A stretch of DNA of 64,000 nucleotides, from positions 79,946 to 143,945 of the forward strand of contig CAJTLG010000006.1 of the NCBI GenBank assembly GCA_910577395.1. The letters run 5' to 3'. Below are positions 1,223-17,537 of the stretch, one piece after another (position 1 is the stretch's first letter; the number at the start of each line of letters is the position of its first letter). This DNA is from an uncultured Vampirovibrio sp. Lineage in GTDB: Bacteria > Cyanobacteriota > Vampirovibrionia > Gastranaerophilales > Gastranaerophilaceae. A program made the translations under genes and the position numbers. The notes under the pieces were generated by a model. The model did not search any database and was not told where the DNA came from. It was given only the letters and a program-made list of their open reading frames with translations.

Positions 1223-1454
1223 AAATCAAACCTTTGCCCATTCAATACAAGGGCGTTTTAAACCTTTGTCATTATAGCATAAAAGTATTATTTTCAAGTT
1301 ATTTTTAATTTTAAAAAATTGTAGTTTGCGGCAATTTAAAAGGGAAAACAATTTTATATAATAATTTTATAAATCCTCAACTCTTCTGATTGCTTTTGCC
1401 CTTCCTAATAAGCCCCTGTTTTCAGGGACATATCAGGAAGGGTTATTTTAAAGA

Positions 1455-2060
1455 TTACTTGCAGTCTGTTTTTGGACATTCAACCGACGGTCTTTTAGAA
1501 TAGTTATGATGATACCCGGGGCGGCCGAACATTTCGGGACCTTGCGGCATTCTGTGTTCCCTAAAATGTTTTCTGCCTTCTTCTTTAATTTGGGCATATT
1601 TTACCTTTTGTTCGGGTGTTAAAATAGCCTTAAATTCTTTTTCGTTATCTTGTCTGATTTGGCGAATATCCTGGTCGATACTTCTAAGTTCTGTTTTTAA
1701 TACATCAACCCTTTTATCCTGTTCTTTTATTGTTAAATTATCATTATCCATAACGGCTCTGATTTCATCAAGCTTTACCTTTTTTTTATCCATTAAAGGT
1801 TTCATTTTATCATGCCCGCTCATCCTTATTTCTCTTGCCTTTGCAACCTGTTCATCAGAAAGCCCGAGCGCTTTATTGAATTCTTCCGCCCTTTTTTGCA
1901 TTTCAGCCTTTATTTCATCAGGACAGGGTTTTTGGTTTTTTTCATAGCACGGCTGCGCTTTATTTGGGGCCTCAACCTTGCATGGTGCAGCATCTGCTGA
2001 ACACAATCCGCCAAATACAACTGTTGCAGCAAGTGCCATAGTTAAAAATTCTTTTTTCAT
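1455..2060 (-). CDS. periplasmic Spy/CpxP-like (LTxxQ motif) protein
   Basis: I place the start at ATG 2060 (SD 'AAAGGA' 7 nt upstream) rather than 2117. Signal peptide 'MKKEFLTMALAATVVFGGLCSADA|AP'. Charged helical body with 'LTPEQ' (LTxxQ). Lies directly downstream of an ECF sigma gene. Confidence 0.6.
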   Translation of the reverse strand: MKKEFLTMALAATVVFGGLCSADAAPCKVEAPNKAQPCYEKNQKPCPDEIKAEMQKRAEEFNKALGLSDEQVAKAREIRMSGHDKMKPLMDKKKVKLDEIRAVMDNDNLTIKEQDKRVDVLKTELRSIDQDIRQIRQDNEKEFKAILTPEQKVKYAQIKEEGRKHFREHRMPQGPEMFGRPGYHHNYSKRPSVECPKTDCK

Positions 2061-2083
2061 TAAATAATCCTTTCTAATTTTAA

Positions 2084-2584
2084 TTATTCTTCTATTAAAT
2101 CCTGTAATTTTTGACAAAGTTCTTTTTTAGCATTATAAATTCTGGACTTTACCGTCCCGACAGGGCAACTCAGCCTGCGCGCAATATCTTCATAGGTAAA
2201 ATTATAAATTTCTGACATAACAATCACTTCTTTATGCTTTTTATTGAGCGAATTAATCGCCTCTGTTATTCTTACCTGTCTTTCTTTTTGAAGCAATGCC
2301 CCTTCCGGCCCCTTTTTCTTATCCCTCATATTCACCACCACGGTATCATCCTCCGGGGGTGCTTCATATCTATAGCGCGCACTTTTAAGATAATCCCTTG
2401 AAATGTTATAAGTAATTGCTGCAAGCCAGCTTGAAAGTTTACCTCTTTCAGTGTATTTGTCCTTGTTTTTAAAGGCTTTCATATACACTTCCTGTTCAAG
2501 GTCCTCATTATCTTCTTTTGTGACAAGCTTTATTATATTTTTAACCTTTTGCCTGTCTTTATTAAATATTTCCCTAAAATCCAT
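2084..2584 (-). CDS. ECF-type RNA polymerase sigma factor (sigma-70 family, group 4)
   Basis: 166 aa. Region 2 'DLEQEVYMKAF...WLAAITYNISRDYL' and region 4 'YEDIARRLSCPVGTVKSRIYNAKKEL'. Confidence 0.9.
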   Translation of the reverse strand: MDFREIFNKDRQKVKNIIKLVTKEDNEDLEQEVYMKAFKNKDKYTERGKLSSWLAAITYNISRDYLKSARYRYEAPPEDDTVVVNMRDKKKGPEGALLQKERQVRITEAINSLNKKHKEVIVMSEIYNFTYEDIARRLSCPVGTVKSRIYNAKKELCQKLQDLIEE

Positions 2585-2625
2585 TTAAAAATTTCCGTCT
2601 TATCCTGATAAAAAGGCTCTTTGAA

Positions 2626-3018
2626 TTATTGCCCGAAATCCACCGCTATAAGCCCGTAATCATCAACAGGCAAGCCCATTTGCTCATAGCTGTAATCTAC
2701 CCCGTAGGCACCGTCTGAAATAACCGCAATAGTTTCATTTACAAAAGATTCAGGGGTGGTAATTTGCACTGCAAAGAATGCAAGAAATATCATCAGAAAC
2801 GATGCCGCTATTGACAAAATGGCGGTTTTAAGCCTCTTTTGCCTTTGTCTGTATGAAAAAGAAACCTCTTTTATAAGGCCGGAAACTTTTTTCATCTTTT
2901 CATGTTCTGCCGCACAATCCGGGCATATTTTAATATGCTCCAAAAGTGCATTTTTATCAGATGAAATAAAAAGTTCTTCGTATTTCGTGCATTTTTTATC
3001 CATTTTTTGTCCTAGCAT
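2626..3018 (-). CDS. putative zf-HC2 anti-sigma factor, single-pass membrane protein
   Basis: 'EHIKICPDC' fits H-x3-C-x2-C. One TM segment 'AILSIAASFLMIFLAFFAV'. Lies immediately upstream of the ECF sigma gene on the same strand. Confidence 0.65.
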   Translation of the reverse strand: MLGQKMDKKCTKYEELFISSDKNALLEHIKICPDCAAEHEKMKKVSGLIKEVSFSYRQRQKRLKTAILSIAASFLMIFLAFFAVQITTPESFVNETIAVISDGAYGVDYSYEQMGLPVDDYGLIAVDFGQ

Positions 3019-3264
3019 TTTGTTCCTTACATAAATTATAACGATTTAGAATTCGGATTGTTCATTTTTAACGGTTTTTTGATAACATATTAATAATAAA
3101 ACCGCTATAGAGTGCCAAGGTTCAAGGATTTTGGCAGATTGGCAAAAATTCAAATCGTCAGGGTAAACCATACTTTAATGGTAAATTTTCTAAGGCATTT
3201 AGCCTGCGAATTCCGTTTGAACAGTGCCTATACTGTTAAATCAAAAGATTACCCCATAAATAAT

Positions 3265-3434
3265 GGCACAGTGCAAGGGCCACAGCCGATGCTGACAACT
3301 GCTACCCGGCCTGGATATGGGCAGGCACACCCACAAGCGGCAAGTACCATACCATGGTGTTAAACAGCGGCAGCTTTTATGAGCACTCGAACTCTCCGTA
3401 TCCCGCTACTCTTGCCTTTTCGGTGCGCTGTGCC
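3265..3434 (+). ncRNA. candidate structured RNA of unassigned family (GC-rich island in an AT-rich 525-bp intergenic region)
   Basis: A 10-bp closing helix, 3265-3274 'ggcacagtgc' with 3425-3434 'gcgctgtgcc', includes one G-U pair that only works on the + strand. Nested helices: 3277-3281/3308-3312, 3283-3286/3291-3294, 3318-3321/3330-3333, 3339-3344/3411-3416, 3345-3350/3354-3359, 3366-3370/3403-3407. No convincing CDS covers it. Confidence 0.35.
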
Positions 3435-3542
3435 ACGTGGTTTTGGAGACAAATCTGATTAATCCAATCAGACTGATAATTTGTAAATTCTTGTAACAAT
3501 ATTACATATTTACGAAGTTGTTTATCTAATAAAGGAAAAATT

Positions 3543-4157
3543 ATGAGTGAATTTTCAAATGTACGGCTGAACACATTCAATGAATGGTATGGAACAAATA
3601 TCCAACCTGCAATAACCCAACAAAATAATGCTAGCTCCACAAGTATTTTTAGTGAAAATACTATAGATAACAAAGAAACAAAAAATGGCGATACTATAAC
3701 AATTACAGGCAAAGAAATAAGCAAGGAAAAGGCAATTATAGGTGGGTTTGCAATTGTTACCACGGTAATTGGGGCCACTATTTTAATATTTAAAGGCAAA
3801 GGAAAAATGCTGCAAAATGCATCTACACCAAAATTAAATACAAACCAAGGAATTAAAGATGCAGCTAAAATAGCAGAAACAGCAGCCAAAGAAACATCTG
3901 AAGAAACTCTAAAAGATATTGCAACAATTTTTCTAAATCCAGAAGAAATTGACAAATTGATAAACTGGAATACACTTGACCCAAAAATAACTAAAATACT
4001 CCAAGGCGATTTTAAAAACTACCTTGTCAAAACCCCAAAAACCAGGGGCACGATTGAAACTATAGTAAAAAATTTACAAAACATAAGTAAAGAATTACAC
4101 CAGCAGAACTTGAAAAAATTACAAAAAAACATGATGATGGCAACAATCCGGGATTAA
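3543..4157 (+). CDS. hypothetical bitopic membrane protein; 3' end probably continues in the -1 frame to 4246
   Basis: SD-like 'AAAGGAAAAA' lies before ATG 3543. One TM segment 'IIGGFAIVTTVIGATILIF' is followed by 'KGKGK'. No family recognised. See the frameshift finding. Confidence 0.55.
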   Translation: MSEFSNVRLNTFNEWYGTNIQPAITQQNNASSTSIFSENTIDNKETKNGDTITITGKEISKEKAIIGGFAIVTTVIGATILIFKGKGKMLQNASTPKLNTNQGIKDAAKIAETAAKETSEETLKDIATIFLNPEEIDKLINWNTLDPKITKILQGDFKNYLVKTPKTRGTIETIVKNLQNISKELHQQNLKKLQKNMMMATIRD

Positions 4158-4285
4158 AATATCTTGTTGATTATCTTCAAGAAACAATGGGTAGGCCTAA
4201 AGATGTAAAAATGATAATTGATTATTTGCACAAAATTGGCTCGTAGTTGAAAATAAAATCTTTATTAGATAATATAAAAAAATGA

Positions 4286-4318
4286 AGTGCTCTTAAATAA
4301 AAACTAGGAGCACTTTTT
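4286..4318 (+). terminator. rho-independent terminator
   Basis: Stem 'agtgctc' (4286-4292) pairs with 'gagcact' (4308-4314), followed by TTTT (4315-4318). Confidence 0.6.
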
Positions 4319-4381
4319 ATCATCCCCAATCTGTTTTCATGCTATACTTACCCTGTAATCCACCAAAATAGAGGCTGTGCA

Positions 4382-6346
4382 ATGCTTGATATCACAAAAT
4401 ATATTAAAATGGAACTTTCGGGACAGGAATTTTGCGGAGAAAATTTTCACACAAATCCCGATATAGACAAGCTTTCAACTGAAGAAAAAAAAGAAATAAT
4501 ATCAAAAATAAAACCGCACCTTACCCCGGAAGCCATTGTACTGGCGCAGGTTGACCCGATTGTAGGGGATATAGAATATAATTTTAACAAGGCAAAAAAA
4601 TATATAGAGTGGGCAAATGAATTAAAAGTAGGTGCAATCGCCTTTCCGGAGCTGTTTTTATTCGGCTATCCGGTTTTTGATATTATTGACCGCTACCCAA
4701 AATTAGTTGAAAAAAATATTGAATACCTTGAAAAACTTGCAAAATGTACCGGTAAAACCAAGGTCCTGATTGGCTTTTGCGAATTTAACAGATTTTACAT
4801 AGGAAAAAGATATTTTAACTCGGTTGCGGTTTTATCAAACAAAAAAATTGAAACCATAATCAGAAAGACGCTTTTGCCCGTCTACAGCGAGTTTAACGAT
4901 GCCAGATATTTTCAATCTGCAGAATTTGATTCAAAAGAAAGAATTATTGAAATCGGCAAAATGCGCGCAGGCATTGTGATTTGCGAGGAAAACTGGGCAG
5001 ATAAAGACTTCTTTGACCACCCCGTATATAGTTTTGACCCTGTCGATAAAATCATAAAAGAGCAAAACCCTGATATAATCATTAATTGCAGCTCTTCGCC
5101 CACGCGTGCCAAAAAAGAACAGCTGCTGCATAACATGCTTTCTTTTGTAAGTAAAAAGTATGAAACCCCTATCGCGTACGTGAACCAAACTGGTGCTGTT
5201 GACAACATCACCTTTCAGGGCGCAAGCCGCCTGTACAGTGCAAAAGGGGAGATTATGGCCCGTGCAAAGTCTTTTGAGGAGCAGTTTTTCATAGTACAGC
5301 CAAATCCAAAACCCTCTTGCAGCAAGGATATCAACTGTATTTACACCCTTCCGCAGGGTCTTGAAAAAACCTTAAACTCCCAAAAGGCCTTCAGTCTTGA
5401 TTATGAGCCGGACCTTGAGCGTACATACCTCACCATCACTAGCTCTATAAGGGATTACTTTCATAAAAACGGCTTTAAAAGGGCTGTTTTGGGCGTTTCA
5501 GGGGGCTTAGATTCAAGCGTATCGTGTGTTTTACTGGCAGATGCCCTTAAATCGGAAAACGTTTTTGCAGTTTCTATGCCATCCTCCATCACAAGTGAAC
5601 AGTCAAAATCTGACGCACAAGAATTGTGTGCCAATTTAGGCGTTAATTTCACCGAAATCCCGATTTTTGATATGTTCAAAGCCGCGCGGAGCACGTTTGA
5701 CGGGGTATTTGAAAAAGTTGAAACCCGCTGGCAGGATAGGTTTAAGGCGTCTTTAACAAATGATAATATTCAAGCAAGAAGCCGTGCAATGATACTGTGG
5801 GGAATTTCAAACGAGTTCCCAAATACAATGCCCATCGCAACTTCAGACAAATCAGAGCTATATATGGGTTATGCCACAATTAACGGAGATATGTCAGGCG
5901 GTTTTGCGCCAATAGCAGATGTCACAAAAACAAAGCTTTTTGCCCTTGCACGTTGGCTAAACAAAAACAGATTACAGCGAAATGCAATCCCTGAGGCTGT
6001 TTTAATTAAGCCGCCCGGCGCAGAGCTTGCCATAGACCCAAAAACCGGCAAACCCCTGCTTGCAGAAGATGCCCTAATGCCTTATGAATTCCTGGATGAG
6101 GTCATCTGGAGGCTTGAAAACCTGCACCAGAGCAAGGAAGAGATGCTATGCGAAACATTTTTATATGAAGAAAAAAATAATATATCAAAAGCCACTAAAA
6201 TTGCGTGGTTAGACAAATTTTTCCGCCGCATGCAAACTGCTCTCTTTAAATGGTCTATAATGCCCCCGGCACCTATTGTTGATGCCCGCTCAATCAATAA
6301 AACCGAATATAATCAACCAATAACATCAAAATTAAAATTTTATTAA
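4382..6346 (+). CDS. nadE: glutamine-dependent NAD+ synthetase (N-terminal CN-hydrolase domain plus NAD synthetase domain)
   Basis: 654 aa. Nitrilase-type N-terminal half ('AFPELFLFGYP', 'GIVICEENW'). C-terminal PP-loop 'VLGVSGGLDSSV', then 'ELYMGYATINGDMSGGFAPIADV'. Confidence 0.9.
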   Translation: MLDITKYIKMELSGQEFCGENFHTNPDIDKLSTEEKKEIISKIKPHLTPEAIVLAQVDPIVGDIEYNFNKAKKYIEWANELKVGAIAFPELFLFGYPVFDIIDRYPKLVEKNIEYLEKLAKCTGKTKVLIGFCEFNRFYIGKRYFNSVAVLSNKKIETIIRKTLLPVYSEFNDARYFQSAEFDSKERIIEIGKMRAGIVICEENWADKDFFDHPVYSFDPVDKIIKEQNPDIIINCSSSPTRAKKEQLLHNMLSFVSKKYETPIAYVNQTGAVDNITFQGASRLYSAKGEIMARAKSFEEQFFIVQPNPKPSCSKDINCIYTLPQGLEKTLNSQKAFSLDYEPDLERTYLTITSSIRDYFHKNGFKRAVLGVSGGLDSSVSCVLLADALKSENVFAVSMPSSITSEQSKSDAQELCANLGVNFTEIPIFDMFKAARSTFDGVFEKVETRWQDRFKASLTNDNIQARSRAMILWGISNEFPNTMPIATSDKSELYMGYATINGDMSGGFAPIADVTKTKLFALARWLNKNRLQRNAIPEAVLIKPPGAELAIDPKTGKPLLAEDALMPYEFLDEVIWRLENLHQSKEEMLCETFLYEEKNNISKATKIAWLDKFFRRMQTALFKWSIMPPAPIVDARSINKTEYNQPITSKLKFY

Positions 6347-6378
6347 GGATAAACAACATTTTACACGGGAAAACCTTG

Positions 6379-6735
6379 TTATGACTGCCTTACAGCCTGA
6401 CAAAATTTAAACAGCATTCGTGCAAGCATATCATTTTGGCGCACTTCATTAATTACAGAAATTTTAATTTCTTCAATGGATTTTTGGCCGTTATCAAACA
6501 TAAATAGTTCATAAATCTCTATATTCAATGCCAGTGCAATTTTTGCAAGATTATCGGGGGAGGGGTAATTTTTACCTATTTCGATTTTTGAAACATTATT
6601 CGGCTCAATATCAATCAACTCTGCAAGCTTTTCCTGGGTCATCTTCCTAAACTTGCGAAGTTCTTTTATCCTTGAACCGAGTAGTTTTTTTACGTCAATG
6701 GGTGCAGTCATTATAAGTGCCCTTTTCGCTGTCAT
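6379..6735 (-). CDS. XRE-family helix-turn-helix transcriptional regulator
   Basis: 'LRKFRKMTQEKLAELIDIEPNNVSKIEIGKNYPSPDNLAKIALALNIEIYELF' is a classic Cro/C1-type HTH. Divergent from the glycine-rich prepilin gene. Start may be an internal Met. Confidence 0.85.
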   Translation of the reverse strand: MTAKRALIMTAPIDVKKLLGSRIKELRKFRKMTQEKLAELIDIEPNNVSKIEIGKNYPSPDNLAKIALALNIEIYELFMFDNGQKSIEEIKISVINEVRQNDMLARMLFKFCQAVRQS

Positions 6736-6793
6736 TATTATATATTAGCGATTTTACCCGAAATGAAACATATTTTTATAGAATATATTTTAT

Positions 6794-6822
6794 TTGACAA
6801 TTCTACCCAATAAATATAAAAT
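6794..6822 (+). promoter_or_regulatory. sigma-70-type promoter for the glycine-rich prepilin gene
   Basis: TTGACA (6794-6799), 17-nt spacer, TAAAAT (6817-6822), about 70 nt upstream of ATG 6894. Confidence 0.55.
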
Positions 6823-6893
6823 ACAATTAGTTGCATCTAATTTCTTATAGAAAAGTTGTTGTATTAAATAGAATTTTAGGGAAATTGTTTATT

Positions 6894-9815
6894 ATGAAGA
6901 AAAGTTGTTCATTTGTGCGCCATTTTGCGCACCCCGGTTTTTCATTAATTGAGATGCTCATGGCTCTCCTTGTAGCATCATTGTTACTTGCAGCATTAGC
7001 TCCTGTAATGACAAGAAAGTTTGGGGATAATGTTAATGTATCCGGTGTAGGTAATGGTGCTAAAAGTGATTATACAAGATTATTTGATAAAGACACTGAA
7101 TGGAATATACCAAACGGTGTTAATGTTGTTAATATAACAGCAATAGGAGGTGGAGGAGCAGGGGGTGGAGCAAGTTACGGATTTCAGGAATTTACATCCA
7201 CAACTAATAATTGGATTGTTCCAAATGGTGTAACAAAGATTAGAGTATTTATGACAGGTGCAGGAGGGGGCGGAGCATCAGGGGGTGCAGGTAAAGATTG
7301 GGCGTATGGTGATATACCCAAGATAGATAGTGCAGAAACACAAATCGCCGCCGCGGGTACATATACATTCAGTGATGATATTGTGCCCCCTACAACCCAT
7401 GTTGCTCCTGAATTAAATAACTTATGTAAAAGTTTAAACGGCAGTTGGCATATTATATCAAAAGATAATGAAAAAATTGTTGCAGGAGAAACATTTAAAA
7501 ATATTGATAAAAATGCAACTGTAACTTTAAGTAAAGTTACAGCTTGCGGCGCAGGCGGAGGAGGAGGCGGAGGAGCGGGGCATGCTGCCGGTGGAGGTGG
7601 TGGCTCAGGGGGATATATCCAAAATGAAACATTAAATGTATCCAAACTTGCATCGAAAATATTCTTAAAAATCGGCTCAGGTGGCGGAGCAGGAAATGGT
7701 GGCAACTATATTGGCGGTTCCAATGTCACTTCGACAGGAGGTACGGGTGGTGGCAGTGGAATTGGCACAGCAAGAGGAGGCACAGGTGCTTACGGCAGTA
7801 CGGGTAGAGCAGGCAACGGAGGCAGCGGTAATGGTACCAGCACTCCAGGTACAGGTGGAGGAACCAGTTCTTATACGTGCTACGGAAAAACAAGTTGCGC
7901 TTCAAGCCCCACTACCGCAGCCGGAAATGGCAGCTATGGCGGCGGCGGGGGAGGCGGCAAAATTGGCGGTTATTCAAGTGCAGGCGGTTCTTCCGGAGCT
8001 GGCGGCGGAGGTGGAGGGGGTACAGCTATTTTAACCGATAGTTCAAACGGTAATGTTGTGTTTGAGATTGGCGGCGGAGGCGGCGGCGGAGGAGCTGGTG
8101 GTAGTCTTGGTACAGGCGGGTCAGGTTATGCCGGCGGCGGCGGAGGAGCTGGTGGTGGTGCGGGCGCCGGCGGCGGCGGAGGCGGTGGTGCAGGCGGGTC
8201 CTATACACAAGGTACAGGTGGTGCAGGCGGGTCTTTTAGTAAGGGTTCTGGTGGGTCTGGTGGCGGAGGTGGTAATACAAATATTTCAAATACCAACGGT
8301 AGCAGTGTAAACGGCGGCCGTGGCGGTAGCCATGGCAGCTATGGTGGAGCTGGCGGAGGTGGTGGTGCGGGCGCCGGTGGCCGTGGCGGTAATGGCGGTG
8401 TTGGCTCATATTCAGATAGCGCTTTAACCGGTGGTGGCACAATATCAACAATTTTTCCAAGCAATTGTAACGGCGGACAAGGCGGCCGTGCCGGAGGAAG
8501 TGATTGCGGTAGTAATGGTTATGGCGGTCTTCCCGGTGCCATGAAACTCTGGTACTCTGCTTCATCAGTAGTGAATGGTCTAAAGTGTGAATATTATACT
8601 AAATCCAACTCCGGTGGGGGCGGCGGTGCCGGTCAGGTATGGTTAGGAGAGATAAGCGTAACCCCCGGTCAAAAGTTAAGCTTTAATATAGGGATTGGAG
8701 GAGAAGGTACATCTAATTACGGAAGTAGCGGATATGGAAGAAATGGCGGCAATGGCGGGGATACATCTATCTTGGTTAACGGTGTAAGTATTGCAAGTGT
8801 ATCAGGGGGTAAAGGAGGAAAATATATAAATAGTAATAATGAAAGTGAGATAAGCAGTAATAGTATAGGTATAGGTGGAGGAATAAAGAAAAGCAGTTTT
8901 TCTAATAATGCTAAATATGTTAATTGGTTAAATCTTAATACAACTAATAACCCCCCAGGACAGTCAGGATTAAAAGCATCTACTCCTGCAAACGGTGCAG
9001 GGGGTGGCAGAGGCGGAAATACTATATCAAAGAATAATACTCTTGTATTAGGAGGATTAGGAGGAGGAGCGCAATCAAACGGAGTTGATACTCTATCTTC
9101 TAACTACGGAGCCGGAGGAGGCGGAGGCGGAGGTGTAGTTAATGAAGGAGGAACACCCGGCCATGGAGGCAAAGGTGCTAACGGATATATATACATTGAA
9201 TGGGGAAGTACAAACGGGGGTGGCGGAGCCAGTGGTCAGGTTGTAGAAAAGAAAGCCGTATGGGTAACACCCGGTACCAAAATAAAAATAAATGTGGGTA
9301 AGGGTGGAGAAGGTAAGGATATACTTAGTGAATTAAATGGTGTATCCGGACAATTCGGACAAAAAGGAAGTAGCGGAGGAAATACTATAGTTACTATACC
9401 TAATGAAGAAATAATAACAGCTCTTGGGGGAGAAGGAGGATACCCGGGGGGAAGTAACCATGGAATAGGAGGGAATGGTGGAGATGAAGCTAATGAAAGT
9501 ATTGGGGGTAATAAGAATAATATGATAACAGAGAATTCTATACCCGGGTATAACGGTAATGATGATTTTGGAGGAAATGGCGGATACATTATGAAAGAGA
9601 TATGTCCTTTATTATACGAACTTAACAAAGCAAGTTACGGAGGATGTGGCGGAAGTAATCCAAGTACTAACGGATGTTATCCAAGCACAGGCCCTATGGG
9701 AAGTAAAGGATACGGTATAGGAGCAGGGGGCGGAGGAGGAAGTGTTAAAGATAACCAAGCTCACGTTGGAGGCAATGGCAGTAATGGGGGTGTAATTATT
9801 GAGTGGAGTAACTAA
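6894..9815 (+). CDS. prepilin-type N-terminal cleavage/methylation domain protein fused to multi-module glycine-rich (polyglycine) domains, 973 aa
   Basis: I use ATG 6894; the listed TTG 6831 adds 21 unlikely residues. Leader 'MKKSCSFVRHFAHPG|FSLIEMLMALLVASLLLAALAPV' has G-1, F+1, E+5 and a hydrophobic helix. The body has Gly runs of up to 8 residues and repeated strand-plus-Gly-run units such as 'WIVPNGVTKIRVFMTGAGGGG', 'VTPGQKLSFNIGIGGEG...GANGYIYIEW' and 'VTPGTKIKINVGKGGEG...GSNGGVIIEW'. Confidence 0.8.
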   Translation: MKKSCSFVRHFAHPGFSLIEMLMALLVASLLLAALAPVMTRKFGDNVNVSGVGNGAKSDYTRLFDKDTEWNIPNGVNVVNITAIGGGGAGGGASYGFQEFTSTTNNWIVPNGVTKIRVFMTGAGGGGASGGAGKDWAYGDIPKIDSAETQIAAAGTYTFSDDIVPPTTHVAPELNNLCKSLNGSWHIISKDNEKIVAGETFKNIDKNATVTLSKVTACGAGGGGGGGAGHAAGGGGGSGGYIQNETLNVSKLASKIFLKIGSGGGAGNGGNYIGGSNVTSTGGTGGGSGIGTARGGTGAYGSTGRAGNGGSGNGTSTPGTGGGTSSYTCYGKTSCASSPTTAAGNGSYGGGGGGGKIGGYSSAGGSSGAGGGGGGGTAILTDSSNGNVVFEIGGGGGGGGAGGSLGTGGSGYAGGGGGAGGGAGAGGGGGGGAGGSYTQGTGGAGGSFSKGSGGSGGGGGNTNISNTNGSSVNGGRGGSHGSYGGAGGGGGAGAGGRGGNGGVGSYSDSALTGGGTISTIFPSNCNGGQGGRAGGSDCGSNGYGGLPGAMKLWYSASSVVNGLKCEYYTKSNSGGGGGAGQVWLGEISVTPGQKLSFNIGIGGEGTSNYGSSGYGRNGGNGGDTSILVNGVSIASVSGGKGGKYINSNNESEISSNSIGIGGGIKKSSFSNNAKYVNWLNLNTTNNPPGQSGLKASTPANGAGGGRGGNTISKNNTLVLGGLGGGAQSNGVDTLSSNYGAGGGGGGGVVNEGGTPGHGGKGANGYIYIEWGSTNGGGGASGQVVEKKAVWVTPGTKIKINVGKGGEGKDILSELNGVSGQFGQKGSSGGNTIVTIPNEEIITALGGEGGYPGGSNHGIGGNGGDEANESIGGNKNNMITENSIPGYNGNDDFGGNGGYIMKEICPLLYELNKASYGGCGGSNPSTNGCYPSTGPMGSKGYGIGAGGGGGSVKDNQAHVGGNGSNGGVIIEWSN

Positions 9816-9957
9816 AATGGGGTACGGCCTTCGTCCTGTCCGCCTTGCCCTTCGGCAAGCCGTCACGGACTCGCACACCTCAGGCTCATTCGGCCTCACA
9901 AAGCCCATCGGGCTAATGTTCGACTCTCACTAAGATTTTAGATAAACAACTTATTTT

Positions 9958-9990
9958 GGGCGCGTATTGTAACCTTCGCGCCCTTTTTTT
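9958..9990 (+). terminator. rho-independent terminator
   Basis: Stem 'gggcgcg' (9958-9964) pairs with 'cgcgccc' (9977-9983), followed by TTTTTTT (9984-9990). Confidence 0.8.
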
Positions 9991-10031
9991 AGCTGTAGGG
10001 CAGGGTTAAATTTACATGCTAAAATGTTACT

Positions 10032-12017
10032 ATGATTGAAAAAAAATTTGAAATAGTTTCTGATTATAAACCGCAGGGCGACCAGCCAAAGGCAATAGAA
10101 ACCCTTGCACAGGGTATAAATGACGGTATGGCAACCCAGACCTTGCTTGGGGTAACAGGTTCAGGAAAAACTTTTACAATTGCAAATGTCATTGAAAAGG
10201 TGCAAAAGCCAACCCTTATAATTGCACACAACAAAACCCTTGCAGCACAGCTGTATAATGAATTTAAAGAGCTTTTCCCGAATAACGCCGTTGAATATTT
10301 TATAAGCTATTATGATTACTATCAACCGGAGGCCTACATCCCGCGCACGGATACATATATTGAAAAATCCGCCTCTATTAATGATGAAATTGACCGCCTG
10401 CGCCATAATACCACACGCAGCCTGTATGAAAGAAAAGATGTAATCATAGTGGCATCTGTCAGCTGTATATACGGTTTAGGGCTTCCGGAAAATTATTTTA
10501 GGGGCTCCATAAACCTTTCTGTTGGTGAAGAAATTGACAGACAGGCGCTTTTAGAACATTTAGTGTTAACACGGTATGAAAGAAACGATGTAGAACTAAA
10601 GCGTGCAACCTTCCGCGCAAGAGGCGATATTGTTGAGATTATGCCAAGTTATGAAAAAATCATAACGCGGATTTATTTCTTTGGGGATGAGATTGAAAAA
10701 ATTTCAAAAATTGACCCTGTAACGGGCGAAATACTTGAAAATGTGCCCGAAACCGTAATATATCCTGCTGTGCATTATCTTGCAGATGATGATGACCTTG
10801 AAGGCTCCTTAGAGCAAATCCGCCGGGAACTTCGTGCCCGCCTGAATGAACTGTATGCACAAAACAAGCTAGTAGAGGCCCAAAGGCTTGAACAGCGGGT
10901 GAATTATGACATTGAAATGATAAAAGAAATGGGGTACTGTTCGGGTATTGAAAATTATTCCCGTATCCTTGAGCGCCGCGCCCCGGGCACCCCGCCCGCT
11001 ACCCTTTTAGACTATTTTCAGGGGGATTATCTTGTGGTGGTGGATGAATCACACGTAACTCTGCCACAGCTAAGAGGTATGTATTTTGGCGACCGTTCAA
11101 GAAAAGAAACCCTTGTAGAGTACGGTTTCAGGCTGCCTTGCGCCAAAGATAACCGCCCGCTTACATTTGATGAATTCTGGGAAAAAATCGGCCAAAAGAT
11201 TTTTATTTCAGCCACCCCTGCTGATTTTGAAAAGGAAGAATCATCACAAATTGTAGAACAAATCATCCGCCCGACAGGGCTTTTAGACCCTGAAATTGAC
11301 GTACGCCCTACAGAAGGCCAAGTAAAGGATTTAATAGAAGAAATCAAAAAGACTTCTGATAAAAAGGAACGTGTTTTAGTTACCACGCTGACTAAAAAAA
11401 TGGCGGAAGAGCTGACTGAATATATGACAGGGCAGGGAATACGCGTAAGATACCTGCATAGCGGGGTGCAATCACTTGAAAGGGTGGAAATCTTAAGGGA
11501 TTTAAGACTCGGAGAATTTGATGTACTTGTAGGCGTAAACCTTTTGAGAGAGGGGCTTGATATTCCTGAAGTATCCCTTGTTGCAATTATGGATGCGGAC
11601 AAAGAAGGGTTTTTAAGGTGTGAAACATCTTTAATCCAGACCATTGGCCGCAGCGCAAGAAATTCTGCAGGCAGGGTTATTATGTATGCCGATAAAATGA
11701 CAGATTCAATGAAGGTGGCAATCGATGAAACCCAAAGGCGCCGCGAACTTCAGATGAAATTTAACAAAGAGCACAATATAACACCAAAAACTATCAAAAA
11801 ATCAATTGAAAACAACCTTTTATCGCTCGTGCAAAGCTATAGAAGTATTGAAGATATTGTGGCAGACCAGATGTGTGAATTAAATATTGAAAAAAAAGAC
11901 CTGCCAAAACTTTTAAACCAGCTTGAAAAAGATATGCACAAAGCTGCTAAAATCCTTGATTTTGAACGCGCCGCAGAATTAAGAGACCAGATAAAGAAAT
12001 TAAGAGAGATGGTGTAA
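10032..12017 (+). CDS. uvrB: excinuclease ABC subunit B
   Basis: 661 aa. Walker A '[10 protein letters not shown]', '[10 protein letters not shown]', helicase motifs 'VVVDESHVT' and 'TIGRSARN', and C-terminal UVR motif '[14 protein letters not shown]'. Confidence 0.97.
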
Positions 12018-12195
12018 AACATAAAAACTGCATCTACGCTGCTTTTTAATCAGTGTCTGACAAACGGCGAAATTGATGATGAGACATTGTTCCTTGCAAT
12101 GTCTCTCAAGAAAATAGTTGAAGAATGCGAAAATAAAATGTATAAAATTTAAATTTTTAAAGCAAAAAAATATTCACAGATGTTTTAAATATTAT

Positions 12196-13032
12196 ATGAT
12201 TACAGTTACAAATAAAACAAGTACAGCACAATTACCCAAACCAAATAATGCACAATATCAACCGACCCCGCTTAGCGCAATCAATACAACAAGCATAAAG
12301 CAAGATGATACTTTTGGTTTTACAATCAGGCAATCTGATAAGCTTAATAACCTTAAGGCGCTATATTCAATGTTTGTTAATTTGACACCTCAAAATGTAA
12401 AAGATATGAAGAATAAGACAAACAAAGAGGCGGCAAAATACTGTTACGATTTAATATGCAAATCTATGAAAATACCAAATGAAATTGCCCCTGAATTTAT
12501 AATAAAAACCACAAATAAAGAAGCGCCCGGATTATGCGGGCTATATACTTATATGACAAATGAATTAAGTTATTTTAGTGAATCTGCCGGCAATACAAAA
12601 CTTGGGAAATGGTGGACTTTCGGGCTTATAAGACATGAAATGGAACATTTTAGACAAAATATAGATATATTAAGAAGTAAAGAACTTAGCGAAAAATTGT
12701 TTGAATATTATGATAAAACACTTGAAGATGTCGGAGCTGCCTATAAATTCAGCAAACAAGAAATACAAGATGAAAAAGCGGAATTTAGGAATATACAAAA
12801 AAGTTTTCAATCCAAAATACTAAAATATTATCCGCCAATTCAAGCAGGCACCAAAGAATATAAACATGCAGAAAAAATGCTTAATAATCGCATGAATTAC
12901 ACCCTTGGCACAAAAGGAATATCAGATAAATTAAAGTATTTTATCCAGCCAAGCGAATTTGAAGCCTGCAGGGTGCAGGGGTTTAACTGGATAAATTACT
13001 TATCAAAACGTATTAAAAGCATATTTATCTGA
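12196..13032 (+). CDS. hypothetical protein with HExxH zinc-metallopeptidase-like motif
   Basis: Likely start is ATG 12196 ('MITVTNK'), since the upstream part of the listed ORF is AT-rich promoter-like sequence. 'LIRHEMEHF' is the only recognisable motif. No signal peptide or TM segment. Confidence 0.45.
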   Translation: MITVTNKTSTAQLPKPNNAQYQPTPLSAINTTSIKQDDTFGFTIRQSDKLNNLKALYSMFVNLTPQNVKDMKNKTNKEAAKYCYDLICKSMKIPNEIAPEFIIKTTNKEAPGLCGLYTYMTNELSYFSESAGNTKLGKWWTFGLIRHEMEHFRQNIDILRSKELSEKLFEYYDKTLEDVGAAYKFSKQEIQDEKAEFRNIQKSFQSKILKYYPPIQAGTKEYKHAEKMLNNRMNYTLGTKGISDKLKYFIQPSEFEACRVQGFNWINYLSKRIKSIFI

Positions 13033-13057
13033 TATTTGCTGATGTAATACCAAAACT

Positions 13058-13972
13058 TTACACTAGCGGGGTTTTATCAATAGATTTTAAGACATCATTT
13101 AAAACGTCAAACAGCTCTGCACGCTCAATTTCCGTTAATTCGACAAGCGGCCTTCTTACATAATTTTCAAACATCTTTAATCTTGATAATACAGCCTTTA
13201 CAGGAACAGGATTTGGTGCCATAAATAATTTTTTAAACAGCGGGTATAATTTTTGGTGCATATTCCTTGCTGCTTTTACCTGCCCTGATTTGAAATTGTG
13301 AATTAAGGATTTAATTTCATCCCCCACAACATGAGATGCCACAGAAATTACCCCATGTGCCCCAAGTGAAAGCATTGGAAGCGTAAGACTGTCATCTCCG
13401 CAATAAATTGCAAAATCATCAGGGCACTGTGCCTTTAATTCCGTTATCACATCCATATCGGGGAAACTTTGCTTTAGGGCGACAATATTAGGATACTCTT
13501 TTGCAAGGAATGCAACTGTTGAAGGCTGCATATTTACACCTGTACGCCCAGGAATATTGTATAGGATAATAGGAATATCTACACTTTTAGCAATCGCCCC
13601 AAAATGTTCAATCATCCCTTGCTGATTTGGTTTATTATAATAAGGCACAACAGAAAGTATAGCATCTGCCCCAAGTTCCTGCGCTTTTTTAGATGATTCA
13701 ATAGCGGTTCTTGTACAGTTTGAGCCTGCACCCATAATAACCTTAGCAGCCCCCGAAACAACACCTTTAACGGCATATAAAAGTTCGTACTCTTCGCTGT
13801 GGGTTAATGTGGGGCTTTCCCCCGTGGTGCCTGCAACCAATATAGTGTCAGAGCCTGTATTTATAAGATGTTTTGCAAGCTTTTCAACCGCAGGAAAATC
13901 TATCTCTCTTTTTTCGTTAAACGGTGTCACCATTGCGGTTATTACTTCACCTGCATCATATCTTAATGTCAT
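13058..13972 (-). CDS. dapA: 4-hydroxy-tetrahydrodipicolinate synthase
   Basis: 304 aa. 'ITAMVTPF', 'ILVAGTTGESPTLTHSE', 'YYNKP' and 'ILYNIPGRTG' are DapA family motifs. SD 'GAAGGAG' lies upstream. Confidence 0.93.
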   Translation of the reverse strand: MTLRYDAGEVITAMVTPFNEKREIDFPAVEKLAKHLINTGSDTILVAGTTGESPTLTHSEEYELLYAVKGVVSGAAKVIMGAGSNCTRTAIESSKKAQELGADAILSVVPYYNKPNQQGMIEHFGAIAKSVDIPIILYNIPGRTGVNMQPSTVAFLAKEYPNIVALKQSFPDMDVITELKAQCPDDFAIYCGDDSLTLPMLSLGAHGVISVASHVVGDEIKSLIHNFKSGQVKAARNMHQKLYPLFKKLFMAPNPVPVKAVLSRLKMFENYVRRPLVELTEIERAELFDVLNDVLKSIDKTPLV

Positions 13973-14001
13973 ACCTTTTAATCTCCTTCAAGCTATTTTG
14001 A

Positions 14002-14071
14002 TTTACTTATATACGGCCGCGCCCTTTATTTGTTTACGGTTGCGCCCATTTATTTATTTACGGCTGTGCCG
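14002..14071. repeat. three tandem degenerate 23-24-bp copies of the asd 3' terminus
   Basis: Copies at 14002-14024, 14025-14047 and 14049-14071 match 18/23 (first vs second) and 19/23 (second vs third). The third copy encodes the last asd codons plus the stop. The other two fill the asd-dapA spacer. Confidence 0.7.
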
Positions 14072-15081
14072 TAAAGGCCCATTTTTACAACAGATTCCGC
14101 AATGCGCACTGTATTAAGTGCAGCACCTATTCTTAAATTATCCGCCACACAGAATAAATCAATCGCATTATCAAAAGCAATAGATTTTCTTATCCTGCCC
14201 ACATAAACAGGGTCTTTGCCGGCACAATCTTTTGGGGTTGGGTAAACGTAGTTATCAATATCATCAACCACTTCTACACCCCATGCGTTTGATAAAATTT
14301 CGCGTGCTTTATTTGCATCCATAGGTTTTTCAAATTCAATAGTAACAGCCTCACTGTGGCCTCTGTATACAGGTACACGCACAGCGGTACAAGATATGGG
14401 CACACTTTCTGAAAGGTGAAGGATTTTCCTTGTTTCGTTTGTCACCTTCATCTCTTCTTTTGTATAGCCGTTTTCAGTAAATGAATCAATCTGCGGAATA
14501 AGGTTAAAACCTATTTCATATTTAAACACCTTGTTTTCATAGGGCATTCCAACTAAATTAACCTTTGAATTATCAGTTAATTCATTCATAGCAGCCAATC
14601 CGGCACCTGAAACAGCCTGATAGGTAGAAACTATAAGCCTTTTAATATTTGCATAGTCATGCAGTGGTTTTAAAACAAGCATTAATTGGGATGTTGAACA
14701 ATTCGGATTAGCAACAATTCCCTTGTGCATTTTTAAATCTTCATCATTAACACCTGCAATCACAAGCGGTACATCCTTTTCCATTCTGAATGCACTTGAA
14801 TTATCTATATATACAGCCCCTCTTTTTGCAGCCTCTTTTGCAAGAGCAAGGCTTGTAGAGCCGCCGGCAGAGGCCAACACTATATCAACCCCCTCAAAAG
14901 CATCGGGCGTTGCTTTAATTACTGTGTGTTCTTTGCCTGCAAAATCAAGCTTTGAGCCTGCGGAACGGGCTGATGCCAGCATTTTAATTGAGTTAAATTC
15001 AAATTTTTTTTCTTCCAAAATACTTAGTATTTCTCTTCCGACAACCCCTGTCGCCCCAAGAACAGCTATATTCGGTTTCAT
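14050..15081 (-). CDS. asd: aspartate-semialdehyde dehydrogenase
   Basis: 343 aa. 'VLGATGVVGRE', active-site region 'ANPNCSTSQLM' and 'STYQAVSGAG'. Confidence 0.95.
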   Translation of the reverse strand: MKPNIAVLGATGVVGREILSILEEKKFEFNSIKMLASARSAGSKLDFAGKEHTVIKATPDAFEGVDIVLASAGGSTSLALAKEAAKRGAVYIDNSSAFRMEKDVPLVIAGVNDEDLKMHKGIVANPNCSTSQLMLVLKPLHDYANIKRLIVSTYQAVSGAGLAAMNELTDNSKVNLVGMPYENKVFKYEIGFNLIPQIDSFTENGYTKEEMKVTNETRKILHLSESVPISCTAVRVPVYRGHSEAVTIEFEKPMDANKAREILSNAWGVEVVDDIDNYVYPTPKDCAGKDPVYVGRIRKSIAFDNAIDLFCVADNLRIGAALNTVRIAESVVKMGLYGTAVNK

Positions 15082-15872: not shown

Positions 15873-15953
15873 TTTAAATCTCCAAAATTGTTAAAATATC
15901 CGACTGGAATTATTTCACAAAAACACACCAAATACAAGACTGTGCCAATTTTT

Positions 15954-16583: not shown

Positions 16584-16689
16584 CTTTATAAAAAATTAAG
16601 TCACAATAAATGTTAGGTAAACATAATAAACATTATTTACATGTTTTTCAACTAAAAAAAGTTTAATGTAAAGAAAAATAACATTTTAT

Positions 16690-17443: not shown

Positions 17444-17537
17444 GCCGGTGTTCCCAAGGCACAAACGATGAGTTTGCAACTGGAACGCAATAAAACAAGC
17501 GTAATCAATAGAAAATAAATAAAAGGAGATTAAAATT

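Follow-up and report, generated by a model that had tools for sequence, protein, structure and literature searches.

A large glycine-rich protein with a prepilin-type signal belongs to a strain-variable gene family of Gastranaerophilales

Results

The window, the whole stretch of 64,000 nucleotides analysed in this study, carries on its forward strand a coding sequence at positions 6894-9815 that encodes 973 aa from an ATG, with the stop codon at 9813-9815. The call is identical in the source contig (L001), and an alternative TTG start at 6831 would give 994 aa. Glycine makes up 29.8% of the protein, and the G+C content of the gene region is 48%, compared with about 36% for the window. The initial annotation described this ORF as a pilin leader with glycine-rich modules and runs of up to eight glycines. 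The ORF check and HMM scores bore out the first point, and the longest run was indeed eight residues (aa 394-401).

Both regulatory features proposed upstream of the gene were recovered. A divergent gene on the reverse strand (6379-6735) encodes its putative cognate partner, an XRE-family HTH regulator (Pfam HTH_19/HTH_3) of 118 aa from ATG here and 110 aa in the source contig. A sigma-70-type promoter-like site, TTGACA-17 nt-TAAAAT (6794-6822, forward strand), matches at 11 of 12 positions, and both hexamers are kept in the positional ortholog L086 although the upstream sequence diverges. In 55 of the 81 loci of the gene family described below, a homologous divergent HTH gene was found upstream at a distance of no more than 900 bp, and it was co-directional in none; the distant relative L088 also has a divergent XRE gene. 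Promoter-like sites that match in 10 or more of the 12 positions occurred upstream of 40 of 85 family genes and in 57 of 425 random windows (47% vs 13%). Downstream of the gene lies a GC-rich (57%), possibly REP/MITE-like element (9816-9940, forward strand), which is 98% conserved in L086 and had no Rfam match; in L066, another family gene has a 61-nt piece of it downstream, in inverted orientation. It is followed by an intrinsic-terminator-like hairpin, GGGCGCG-12 nt loop-CGCGCCC with a T7 tract (9958-9990, forward strand), which a pattern scan missed because of its 12-nt loop. The hairpin and T7 tract previously called a strong terminator are thus present, but the folding energy is unexceptional against shuffles (z = -0.65).

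The N-terminus of the protein reads MKKSCSFVRHFAHPG|FSLIEMLMALLVASLLLAALAPVMTRK. The first 15 residues (6894-6938) form a basic, Gly-ended leader with a predicted prepilin-peptidase cut after G15, and aa 16-42 (6939-7019) form an alpha1-N-type hydrophobic helix with F+1, E+5, P+22 and a T-(K/R)-(K/R) stop. TIGR02532 scored 22.8 bits at aa 15-35 (cutoff 16.3), where an N_methyl match had been predicted (near residues 10-35). PF07963 scored 20.6 bits on the full protein and 25.8 bits on the isolated N-terminus (gathering score 21.2). The earlier reading of the N-terminus as a prepilin-peptidase substrate is upheld by the TIGR02532 score and by PF07963 on the isolated N-terminus. This was the only prepilin-like ORF in the window. 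Across the family, the near-invariant helix can be written (A/G)|FSL(V/I)EMLMALLVASLLLAALAPVMT(K/R). Residues F16, S17, L18, E20, L22, A24-S29, L31, A34-V38 and T40 were unchanged across 78 family sequences, and mean identity was 90% in the helix compared with 22-45% at non-Gly positions elsewhere. Residue -1 was Ala in 88 members, Gly in 18 and Ser in one; Ala and Gly are the accepted -1 residues of class III signals (PMC10191384; PMC8179133). The MKKSCS-type start recurs in the leaders of paralogs, and distant relatives with diverged helices retain the short basic leader, A/G at -1, F1, E5 and P22.

The helix is joined by a variable, low-confidence linker (aa 43-57; 7020-7064), in which mean identity is 33% and pLDDT is below 50 (residues 35-57), to a conserved N-terminal beta/Gly domain (aa 58-132; 7065-7291) with pLDDT of about 90 and partial Gly_rich_2 matches (profile positions 11-73). 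This domain contains two "strand + GGGG" starts at aa 69-93 and 106-133, which are the two W(N/I)(I/V)PNGV...GGGG units noted initially. The C-terminal part consists of glycine-rich module A (aa 545-773; 8526-9212), which ends in GANGYIYIEW and has pLDDT mostly above 90, and module B (aa 774-973; 9213-9812), which ends in GGVIIEWSN. They matched PF21722 with 35.0 bits (profile positions 33-225/226) and 37.7 bits (34-225/226), respectively, and contain, at the nucleotide positions originally claimed, the two long repeats GQVW...GYIYIEW (aa 581-771) and GQVV...GGVIIEW (aa 781-971). Over the full protein, PF21722 (Gly_rich_2) scored 45.5 bits against a gathering score of 24.3; the matches comprise two complete modules and, towards the N-terminus, three partial starts. 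The Pfam profile search gave no PF12810 match. The proposed glycine-rich-domain assignment therefore held, with repeated matches, but the family is PF21722 and not PF12810. Judged from its sequence, the protein bears a bona fide class III (prepilin-type) signal and stacked glycine-rich domain modules.

An AF2 model of the full protein had a pLDDT of 81.4, and module B modelled alone had a pLDDT of 88.6 and a pTM of 0.84. In the high-confidence blocks, 65% of residues had no alpha/beta assignment, and 42% of those were Gly. The only modelled pilin element was a helix at residues 18-33 followed by the disordered linker; neither an alpha1-C helix nor a pilin beta-sheet head was seen in the model, which departs from known pilins and modular pilins. 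The best PDB matches were the cyanophage Pam3 fibre, the Bxb1 tail tip and ALK/LTK. They were weak (TM 0.3-0.4 to phage fibres; 0.15-0.24 with rmsd of about 17 A to ALK/LTK), and none reached E <= 1e-3 in the PDB search. Of the 68 matches that a BFVD search gave at E <= 1e-3, most were to tail-fibre or minor-tail proteins. In Pam3 gp24, the domain that is TNF-like as well as glycine-rich has been described as a receptor-recognition module whose stem is conserved and whose tip is hypervariable (PMC9608196). The nearest folds, solved or predicted, are the receptor-binding glycine-rich domains of phage tail fibres; the likeness to ALK/LTK is slight.

These matches raise the question of whether the genes, domesticated or resident, encode receptor-binding proteins of a phage tail fibre or tailocin and are accompanied by a phage-type XRE repressor. 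Glycine-rich modules of this class are typical of minor tail proteins and of phage tail fibres, a weak PHROG tail-fibre-assembly match was obtained, and phages commonly carry XRE regulators. However, no phage structural, integrase or lysis genes flanked any inspected locus, the neighbours were housekeeping genes in conserved synteny, and no relative was found among 2.9 million viral contigs with either the helix or the C-terminal modules as seed. PADLOC gave no match, and a pilin-type signal is foreign to phage fibres. A phage origin of this kind is very improbable.

The modules are separated from the N-terminal domain by a central segment (aa 133-544; 7292-8525, forward strand) that comprises a small beta subdomain and the most glycine-rich stretch of the protein. 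This 1.23-kb segment gave no blastn alignment with its counterpart in L086 (1234 vs 1081 nt), whereas its flanks were 94.7% and 98.9% identical. The boundary is sharp, at codon 133/134, and residues 24-126 are 100% identical in the two proteins. Because the segment is unalignable between near-identical positional orthologs, we regard it as a hypervariable cassette. Synonymous and non-synonymous substitutions in the flanks numbered 19:1 and 28:8, and the alignments indicate that the flanks are under purifying selection. A central identity dip was also found in three other leader-sharing homolog groups, most clearly in the MYKLTT group. No Pfam match was found inside the cassette, and a Cys-rich, Lcl_C-like insert occupies its site in some paralogs. 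The strain-level cassette and the missing head domain had both been overlooked in the initial annotation. The protein also has two conserved Cys pairs, C178/C218 and C525/C565, which hint at an extracytoplasmic location.

Although it had been called an orphan, the gene belongs to a multigene family that is specific to Gastranaerophilales/Melainabacteria and whose members usually come with a cognate XRE gene. Among 1.84 billion protein representatives (50%-identity clusters), only 214 matched. Family loci were found in 13 MAGs, with at least 9-16 per MAG and up to 16 in one. The homolog survey called for at the outset found that every full-length homolog has the fusion of leader and Gly modules, even distant homologs whose helices have diverged. 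These data bear on a possible artefact, in which the gene call would be spurious or the GGN-rich region misassembled, chimeric or collapsed. The gene is indeed broken in the Logan assembly made from the same sample (L002), and contig ends truncate about one third of the family loci. However, an independent sample (L086) has the same gene in the same synteny, with identical ends and an intact leader. In addition, the architecture is repeated in more than 200 homologs of 770-1100 aa, the tandem repeats are only short and imperfect, and the AF2 model is confident over the module boundaries. An artefact can scarcely be credited.

In agreement with the initial annotation, no pilus, T2SS (gsp) or Tad genes were present among the annotated genes of the window. 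Nor was a prepilin peptidase found in the window or, by a motif screen, in about 0.9 Mb of related loci. Secretin, T2SSE and T2SSF genes lie 2.7 kb from one paralog, and an MshEN-T2SSE ATPase gene directly adjoins an XRE-plus-family gene in five assemblies. Since relatives adjoin such genes, and since pilA-D and pilT have been reported from the order (PMC5877343), it is plausible that the protein is delivered by machinery whose genes lie elsewhere in the genome.

Discussion

We lean towards reading this glycine-rich protein as a giant "headless" modular type IV pilin-like protein that acts as a filament- or surface-displayed variable adhesin; its processing and display are what we infer. The class III signal would place the protein in the inner membrane, where a prepilin peptidase would cut after Gly15 (Ala in most paralogs), releasing the 15-residue leader, and methylate Phe16. 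The near-invariant helix may then serve as a handle: a type IV filament machine encoded elsewhere, with a secretin, an MshE/PilB-type ATPase and a PilC-type platform, would take up the protein by this helix and fit the helix into the core of the filament, most probably at the tip or close to it, in the way that a phage fibre docks into a baseplate through its N-terminal helix. The remaining ~930 residues, with TNF-like/glycine-rich modules of the kind used by phage tail fibres for receptor recognition, would be displayed. The cassette, which is swapped between otherwise near-identical strains and replaced by a Cys-rich, lectin-like insert in some paralogs, may be the specificity-determining, antigenically variable part. 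That paralogs have their own strong promoters and divergent XRE regulators suggests that a repertoire of adhesive heads is switched individually.

Several observations weigh against this reading. The ~95-kDa cargo must pass or bypass the secretin in a diderm. Glu5 is invariant, whereas tip-complex capping subunits usually lack it (PMC10191384). The classical short pilins of the same genomes carry G|FTLAE and a different helix. The model has no pilin head, the window has no pilus/T2SS genes, and similarity to solved structures is weak.

The absent head would also fit a surface or envelope protein whose prepilin-like N-terminus serves for export or anchoring only, the protein never polymerising into a pilus. 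Its helix could keep it tethered, cleaved or not, or a T2SS-like piston could expel it as a variable glycine-rich cell coat, with archaeal class-III-signal surface proteins and the PGII-type PE_PGRS family of mycobacteria as analogues. The helix-bearing proteins are all 815-980 aa and no short pilin has this helix; pilus genes are not adjacent to most loci; and many paralogs with strain-level hypervariability resemble surface-antigen families, PE_PGRS proteins having been modelled as PGII sandwiches with exposed variable loops (PMC7550000). Yet the invariant F1, E5 and P22 are filament-assembly and peptidase determinants that are hard to explain for a mere anchor, and a charged Glu is disfavoured in a plain membrane anchor. 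A linker of 20 residues is too short to reach across a diderm's periplasm and outer membrane, so that a protein tethered in the inner membrane would not be exposed to the pressures for diversity to which the cassette points. The adjacency to T2SSE-type ATPase genes is conserved in five assemblies. We consider this explanation rather unlikely.

Alternatively, the family might itself supply the major subunits of a type IV-like filament of a novel, thick and heteropolymeric kind, with a core of identical alpha1-N helices and a bulky, variable sheath of glycine-rich modules. With the helix so strongly conserved among paralogs, the subunits could co-polymerise freely; Glu5 never varies, as is also the case in polymerising subunits; and the genes have strong promoters. 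A filament of 95-kDa subunits would nevertheless be too big for the secretin channel, and the hosts are diderms with secretin genes; the head domain for the usual outer-shell contacts is missing, and there is no known precedent. Such a filament seems improbable.

The variable adhesin that we favour resembles several known systems. Mycobacterial PE_PGRS proteins offer a functional analogy only. They form a large paralogous surface-protein family in which a conserved export module at the N-terminus is followed by a glycine-rich domain that is polymorphic and modelled as PGII sandwiches (PMC7550000), but they differ in the PE domain/ESX-5 export signal, the GGA-GGX repeat chemistry and the phylum, and there is no homology. 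The large minor tip pilins of type IVb systems (ETEC CofB, V. cholerae TcpB) and GspK/ComZ-type proteins are likewise large pilin-signal proteins with extra beta-rich domains. They start or cap the filament and mediate the binding of a ligand or effector, CofB being a tip trimer (PMC10191384; PMC8179133). Unlike the protein studied here, these proteins have a full pilin head, are single-copy in a pilus operon, are about half the size, and are neither glycine-rich nor hypervariable.

The extracellular glycine-rich (TG) domain of ALK/LTK (PF12810) has polyglycine-II helices on a TNF-like sandwich, binds ligand and has been reported to be structurally similar to Pam3 gp24 (PMC9608196). Our protein has no PF12810 match and low TM-scores to this domain, whose context is a eukaryotic receptor kinase. 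The best structural matches are phage fibre domains (Pam3 gp24, PDB 7YPX; Salmonella phage S16 gp38; the Bxb1 tail tip), in which a glycine-rich lattice lies on a beta-sandwich, with a conserved glycine stem, hypervariable ligand-contacting segments and an N-terminal helix that docks to a larger machine (PMC9608196). The protein of the window differs in being cellular, chromosomal and absent from viral contigs, in having three tandem or nested modules instead of one, and in using a pilin alpha1-N with a class III leader as its docking helix; the TM-scores are only 0.3-0.4.

Modular type IV pilins such as PilB and PilC of S. sanguinis (Raynaud et al. 2021, PMC8179133) also carry a class III signal (IPR012902 motif) followed by non-pilus "effector" domains. 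These are thought to be displayed on filaments for adhesion, occur in diderms and monoderms and include multi-domain examples. Pilin leaders joined to glycine-rich modules are already known from that catalogue: its Dataset S1 lists IPR012902-PF12810 for two proteins and IPR012902-PF12810 x3 for one, contrary to the earlier assumption that pilins with stacks of such modules were not known. In contrast to these pilins, the pilin module here is alpha1-N alone, with neither alpha1-C nor a beta-sheet head, and the cargo is PF21722 instead of the catalogued PF12810. Nor have modular pilins been described with at least 9-16 family copies per genome, with a helix that is invariant, with a cognate XRE gene or with a cassette that is hypervariable between strains. 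What is new here is a large, hitherto undescribed, strain-variable gene family in Gastranaerophilales, the uncultured gut relatives of cyanobacteria.

A class III signal and near-invariant helix precede the glycine-rich region

The 973-aa open reading frame proposed in the initial annotation at 6894-9815 (+) is real. Read from its ATG, it was called identically in the source scaffold (L001), a 153-kb metagenomic sequence. Glycine makes up 29.8% of the protein, with a longest run of 8 residues, and the gene has a G+C content of 48% and a strong G-skew, compared with about 36% G+C for the window. The N-terminus reads MKKSCSFVRHFAHPG/FSLIEMLMALLVASLLLAALAPVMTRK, and the 15-aa leader MKKSCSFVRHFAHPG ends in Gly. 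A prepilin-type N-terminus with Gly-1, Phe+1 and Glu+5 had been claimed, and both this sequence and a match to TIGR02532 (22.8 bits, aa 15-35; cutoff 16.3) bear it out. Class III signals carry a hydrophobic segment of 20-25 residues behind the cleavage site. The accompanying expectation of an N_methyl match held for TIGR02532, which exceeded its cutoff, and for PF07963 (gathering score 21.2) on the isolated N-terminus (25.8 bits); PF07963 scored 20.6 bits in the full protein.

The gene belongs to a family of homologs in Gastranaerophilales (Melainabacteria). The motif (A/G)FSL(V/I)EMLMALLVASLL(L/M)AALAP(V/I) was present in 107 of 121 sequences, the remainder being truncated gene calls. In an alignment of 78 sequences, F16, S17, L18, E20, L22, A24-S29, L31, A34-V38 (which includes P37) and T40 were invariant, and identity across the family was 90% in the helix versus 22-45% at non-glycine positions elsewhere. 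The residue at -1 was Ala in 88 sequences, Gly in 18 and Ser in 1. Since class III leaders end in Gly or Ala (PMC10191384, PMC8179133), Ala at -1 is compatible with processing. Tip complexes are capped by a subunit without Glu5 (PMC10191384, PMC8179133), and the invariance of Glu5 therefore argues against a place for the family protein at the extreme tip.

In distant members the helix has diverged (MKKRA/FTLAELLTAVLVISIIMVALAPVITKR is one case), yet the leader is still short and basic, -1 is still Ala or Gly, and F1, E5, P22 and the T-(K/R)-(K/R) stop are retained. They also keep two "strand + GGGG" starts, a variable insert and the terminal glycine-rich modules. These results indicate that the fusion of leader and glycine-rich modules is ancient and conserved down to distant members; the chimeric join considered in the initial annotation was not borne out.

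The glycine-rich modules belong to PF21722 and may resemble phage fibres

PF21722 (Gly_rich_2; gathering score 24.3) matched the whole protein at 45.5 bits and was present in all 120 homologs among the matches listed. Scans of fragments gave two complete modules, A at aa 543-774 (35.0 bits) and B at aa 771-973 (37.7 bits), which span positions 33/34-225 of the 226 in the profile. Three partial PF21722 starts were found in aa 43-270, and the fragment aa 201-560 gave no PF21722 match. Repeated glycine-rich modules had been expected and were present, their family being PF21722 and not the PF12810 type; PF12810 had no match to the protein at E <= 1 in the Pfam profile search. The two WxxPNGV...GGGG units (aa 69-93 and 106-133) and the two long repeats (aa 581-771, ending GYIYIEW, and aa 781-971, ending GGVIIEW) were located where they had been described.

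A full-length AF2 model was built with the family alignment (mean pLDDT 81.4, pTM 0.58, 493 residues at pLDDT >= 90). The model has a helix only at 18-33, followed by a low-confidence linker at 35-57 and then by beta-rich glycine-rich domains. The full alpha1 helix of a pilin is about 53 residues long and is packed on a globular beta-sheet head. Neither an alpha1-C helix nor a pilin beta-sheet head is present in the AF2 model. In blocks with pLDDT >= 85, 65% of residues were assigned to neither alpha nor beta structure and Gly made up 42% of these, and the modelled blocks are consistent with what is expected of a polyglycine-II-type lattice.

In a Foldseek search against the PDB, the top matches were the cyanophage Pam3 fibre (7ypx_A; E = 3.3e-3, probability 1.00, TMt 0.39, with 23% identity in 211 columns) and the tail tip of mycobacteriophage Bxb1 (9d93_Qb, TMt 0.42). 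The ALK/LTK glycine-rich domains, in which a TNF-like beta-sandwich bears a lattice of polyglycine-II helices, scored lower (TM 0.15-0.24). Among the predicted viral structures of BFVD, 68 matches were obtained at E <= 1e-3, most of them to proteins of the tail fibre or minor tail and to "glycine-rich domain" proteins of giant viruses. Module B modelled alone (pLDDT 88.6, pTM 0.84) gave no better similarity in the PDB: its best match was Bxb1 (E = 0.06, TM 0.31), and ALK/LTK 7lir appeared in this module-only search at E = 4.5. By sequence, the sole match in the PDB was a spurious PPR, and PHROGs gave one weak local match. It is very unlikely that the family consists of phage or tailocin fibre genes, because the neighbours are chromosomal housekeeping genes, the two scans of viral contigs gave no relatives and the glycine-rich protein had no PADLOC match.

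The family is narrow and amplified within genomes

A word-indexed protein search returned 224 relatives, and those among the matches listed (120) were 688-1135 aa long. These relatives and the multiple paralogs per MAG refute the view that the gene is an orphan. A scan of one genome per GTDB species gave 154 relatives, and the 80 of them that were analysed came from 13 MAGs, mostly from mouse gut. As judged on those 80 of the 154 relatives, 11 of the 13 MAGs were labelled Candidatus Gastranaerophilales, "Vampirovibrio", Melainabacteria or "uncultured bacterium", and one of the 13 was a single-contig record labelled "uncultured Bacteroides sp.". At least 16 family loci were counted in MGBC162268, at least 10 (12 genes) in MGBC159851 and at least 9 in MGBC157385. 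The mature length of complete open reading frames with the family helix was always 815-980 aa. An exhaustive HMMER search of 1.84 billion representatives at 50% identity matched no more than 214 of them at E <= 1e-3, and 36 at E <= 1e-30, which makes this a narrow superfamily.

About one third of the family loci run off contig ends (L017, L019-L023, L025, L028, L030, L036, L039, L040, L043, L049, L051, L061, L063, L068, L070 and others). The Logan assembly of the window's own sample also breaks at the gene, its contig L002 ending 210 bp upstream of uvrB. Gastranaerophilales MAGs thus have a hotspot of fragmentation in this family, and its copy numbers are underestimates.

The centre of the gene is a hypervariable cassette

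Among the homologs, P0001 is the closest; it is the positional ortholog of the gene in a different sample (locus L086, SRR18530818). L086 has the same gene order as the window: ECF sigma, NadE, XRE, the gene, UvrB, DapA, Asd and DapB. Recovery of the same gene in the same synteny from an independent assembly makes it extremely improbable that the gene was created by misassembly. Nucleotide identity between the window and L086 was 94.7% over 1366-7291 and 98.9% over 8526-17644. The segment between them, 7292-8525 (aa 133-544), was unaligned, with 1234 nt in the window and 1081 nt in L086, and its left edge was sharp, at codon 133/134. Compared with the ortholog, 19 of the 132 codons in the N-terminal part had synonymous changes and 1 had a non-synonymous change; in the 429 codons of the C-terminal part, the counts were 28 synonymous and 8 non-synonymous. 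These counts indicate that the conserved ends of the gene are under purifying selection. Synonymous change in these ends was higher than in the flanking nadE and uvrB.

A variable centre was also observed in further groups of homologs, each with a common leader. In one group of eight members, the first ~240 residues were 95-100% identical, identity fell to 14-62% in residues ~241-520, and it rose again to 85-100% after that. No donor ("silent") copies of the cassette were found in the window and 88 loci, where only short matches of ~70-85% were obtained. Long tandem repeats, as would be needed for slippage or assembly collapse, were also absent, the arrays being short and imperfect. In view of these two negative results, the cassette most likely changes by allele replacement through recombination, as far as can be read from the sequences compared.

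In lower-glycine paralogs, a Cys-rich insert of ~250 residues with the motif W(R/S/Q)LP(T/S)..EL..W occupies the cassette site. Its match to Lcl_C (PF07603)/DUF1566 was sub-threshold (19-21 bits against a cutoff of 34.9) and covered nearly the whole profile. The presence of this insert suggests that the cassette site is an insertion hot spot for alternative modules, and the modules swapped in there are possibly lectin-like. Lower-glycine genes were seen at L040 3059-5515 and L041 3059-5503, in both cases in tandem with a glycine-rich paralog, and at L065, L073, L077 and L082.

Most family genes are paired with a divergent XRE regulator

The divergent XRE/HTH gene (6379-6735), the promoter-like sequence TTGACA-17-TAAAAT (6794-6822) and the terminator with a GC-rich stem and T7 (9958-9990) that had been reported around the gene were all located. 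An XRE homolog lay divergently within 900 bp upstream in 55 of the 81 family genes with enough flank and was never co-directional, and the pairing was also found in a distant relative of another genome (L088). The wider neighbourhoods varied from locus to locus. XRE divergence correlated weakly with that of the cargo (rho = 0.19; 18 of 999 Mantel permutations reached the observed value). A promoter-like site that matched at 10 or more of the 12 positions was found upstream of 47% of family genes versus 13% of random windows, and the site in the window is conserved in the ortholog.

Some gene calls are extended at the N-terminus (P0002, P0023, P0036, P0045, P0084, P0089 and P0110-P0112). The in-frame upstream extensions give the recurring peptides HAELVSAS, VTLNLFQGL and RHCEGSDSDEA, which suggests small repeat elements between the XRE and family genes in many genomes. 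The stop codon is followed immediately by a GC-rich element of 125 nt (9816-9940; 57% versus ~36%), which is 98% conserved in L086 (8270-8394). A 61-nt piece of it (90%) occurs inverted just downstream of another family gene (L066 3244-3304). The element had a folding energy of -36.8 kcal/mol (z = -1.8) and no Rfam match, and it may be a REP/MITE-like element tied to family genes. Within the coding region of the leader peptide (aa 8-16), a terminator-like hairpin, GTGCGCCATTTTGCGCAC then CCCGGTTTTT, was seen at 6915-6941. It is largely kept in the ortholog and could be either chance or an attenuator.

Filament machinery occurs near relatives and a display role is tentatively proposed

No prepilin peptidase or assembly machinery was found within the 64-kb window, and the initial annotation was right that pilus, T2SS and Tad genes are missing among the annotated genes there. 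A minus-strand cluster at 53-60 kb was considered as a pilus operon and rejected, as Pfam gave TPR proteins, a HAD hydrolase, aspartate kinase, an LdpA-like protein, TilS and a PRTase. The GxGDxK motif of prepilin peptidases was absent from the related loci, which cover small parts of genomes. One paralog lies 2.7 kb from an operon of secretin, T2SSE(MshEN) and T2SSF (L003/L024). P0002 is the closest non-orthologous relative of the window protein, and in five assemblies the genes of its group directly follow a GAF histidine kinase, a response regulator and a 459-aa MshEN/T2SSE ATPase. The kinase-regulator-ATPase unit stands upstream of the XRE and family-gene cassette at L043 1780-5577, and also in L019, L049, L073 and L087. 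The ATPase in units of the L043 type may be associated with the family and be controlled by c-di-GMP or a signal. A single-cell genome of Gastranaerophilales has been reported to carry pilA, pilB, pilC, pilT and pilD (PMC5877343). Across ~0.9 Mb of related loci, just two short pilins of the classical kind were found, both with G/FTLAE and a different helix. The LptF/G, SLH and secretin genes present indicate a diderm envelope.

Other features of the window were also recorded. An SLH-domain protein at 28157-29605 (-) is consistent with a diderm envelope tethered through SLH. A 336-aa gene of the Phage_lysozyme family lies at 33646-34656 (-), with no other phage genes nearby. Two tandem paralogous genes (42059-42769 and 42807-43529; 236 and 240 aa) had only faint EF-hand Pfam matches. 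The gene at 54245-55207 (-) encodes an Fe-S protein that has an LdpA_C domain, of a family known from circadian input in cyanobacteria; the organism here is a non-photosynthetic relative of these bacteria. Rfam and tRNA scans of the window gave no match.

The analysis showed the class III signal, the invariance of the helix, what the modules are, the paralogy, the cassette, the XRE synteny and the machinery in relatives. A far-reaching reading, of rather low probability, is that gut Melainabacteria carry ~10-16 interchangeable phage-fibre-like "heads", each with its own XRE and a strain-exchanged cassette, which would be mounted on a type IV filament through a headless alpha1-N. In the mechanism that we consider most likely, the protein would be inserted in the inner membrane, cleaved after G15 (or Ala), methylated at F16 and extracted by a type IV filament machine. 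Its helix would dock in the core of the filament, probably at the tip or close to it, and phage-fibre-like binding modules would be displayed with their specificity in the variable cassette, each paralog being controlled by its XRE. It is unlikely that the protein would be the major subunit of a novel thick filament. Two problems face the filament model: the pilin head is absent from the predicted structure, and a 95-kDa cargo must pass the secretin in a diderm. A plausible but less likely alternative is that the N-terminus serves only as an export or anchor signal and that the proteins make up a variable surface coat, a logic like that of PE_PGRS (PMC7550000); the strict conservation of the assembly-specific F1, E5 and P22 weakens it. 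If the reading as a repertoire of interchangeable heads is true, cells would have in this family their own equivalent of the host-range cassettes of phages and of families for antigenic variation like PE_PGRS, and a new way to functionalise type IV filaments.

Significance and comparison with known systems

Type IV filaments are thought to gain functions by domain grafting onto pilins. The family may be an extreme of this, in which the pilin is cut down to the membrane/core helix, the cargo is ~930 residues of glycine-rich modules of phage-fibre type, and a genome holds a dozen or more copies of the gene, every one of which has a regulator of its own and a cassette that varies between strains. 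Gastranaerophilales is a widespread, uncultured gut lineage, and if displayed, these proteins would probably be its main variable surface or adhesion determinants. As a hotspot of MAG fragmentation and strain variation, the family could serve as a strain marker. It also offers many confidently modelled natural cases of a rare glycine-rich, probably polyglycine-II, fold, and may link this fold evolutionarily between phage fibres, bacterial surface proteins and the animal ALK/LTK receptors.

In the literature, we found no description of the headless design, of a near-invariant helix in a dozen or more paralogs per genome, of a cognate XRE partner, of strain-level cassette replacement or of restriction to gut Melainabacteria. 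Searches for PF21722/Gly_rich_2, or for Melainabacteria together with glycine-rich proteins, found no literature. Dataset S1 of PMC8179133 lists the architectures IPR012902-PF12810 (2 proteins) and IPR012902-PF12810 x3 (1 protein). The initial annotation had named no known pilin with stacked glycine-rich modules of this size; given the entries in Dataset S1, a pilin leader with stacked glycine-rich modules is not new in kind.

Modular pilins (Raynaud et al. 2021) combine the IPR012902 motif with an extra non-pilus domain, and the window protein shares this plan (N_methyl and PF21722). However, modular pilins have a small complete pilin module and a short linker, whereas the window protein is predicted to have alpha1-N alone before the linker. 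Pam3 gp24 consists of an N-terminal docking helix, a TNF-like domain and a glycine-rich domain, and is reported to be structurally related to the S16 gp38 adhesin and ALK (PMC9608196). Proteins of the Pam3 gp24/S16 gp38 type are encoded by phage tail genes and form trimeric fibres, whereas the window gene lies amid chromosomal housekeeping genes.
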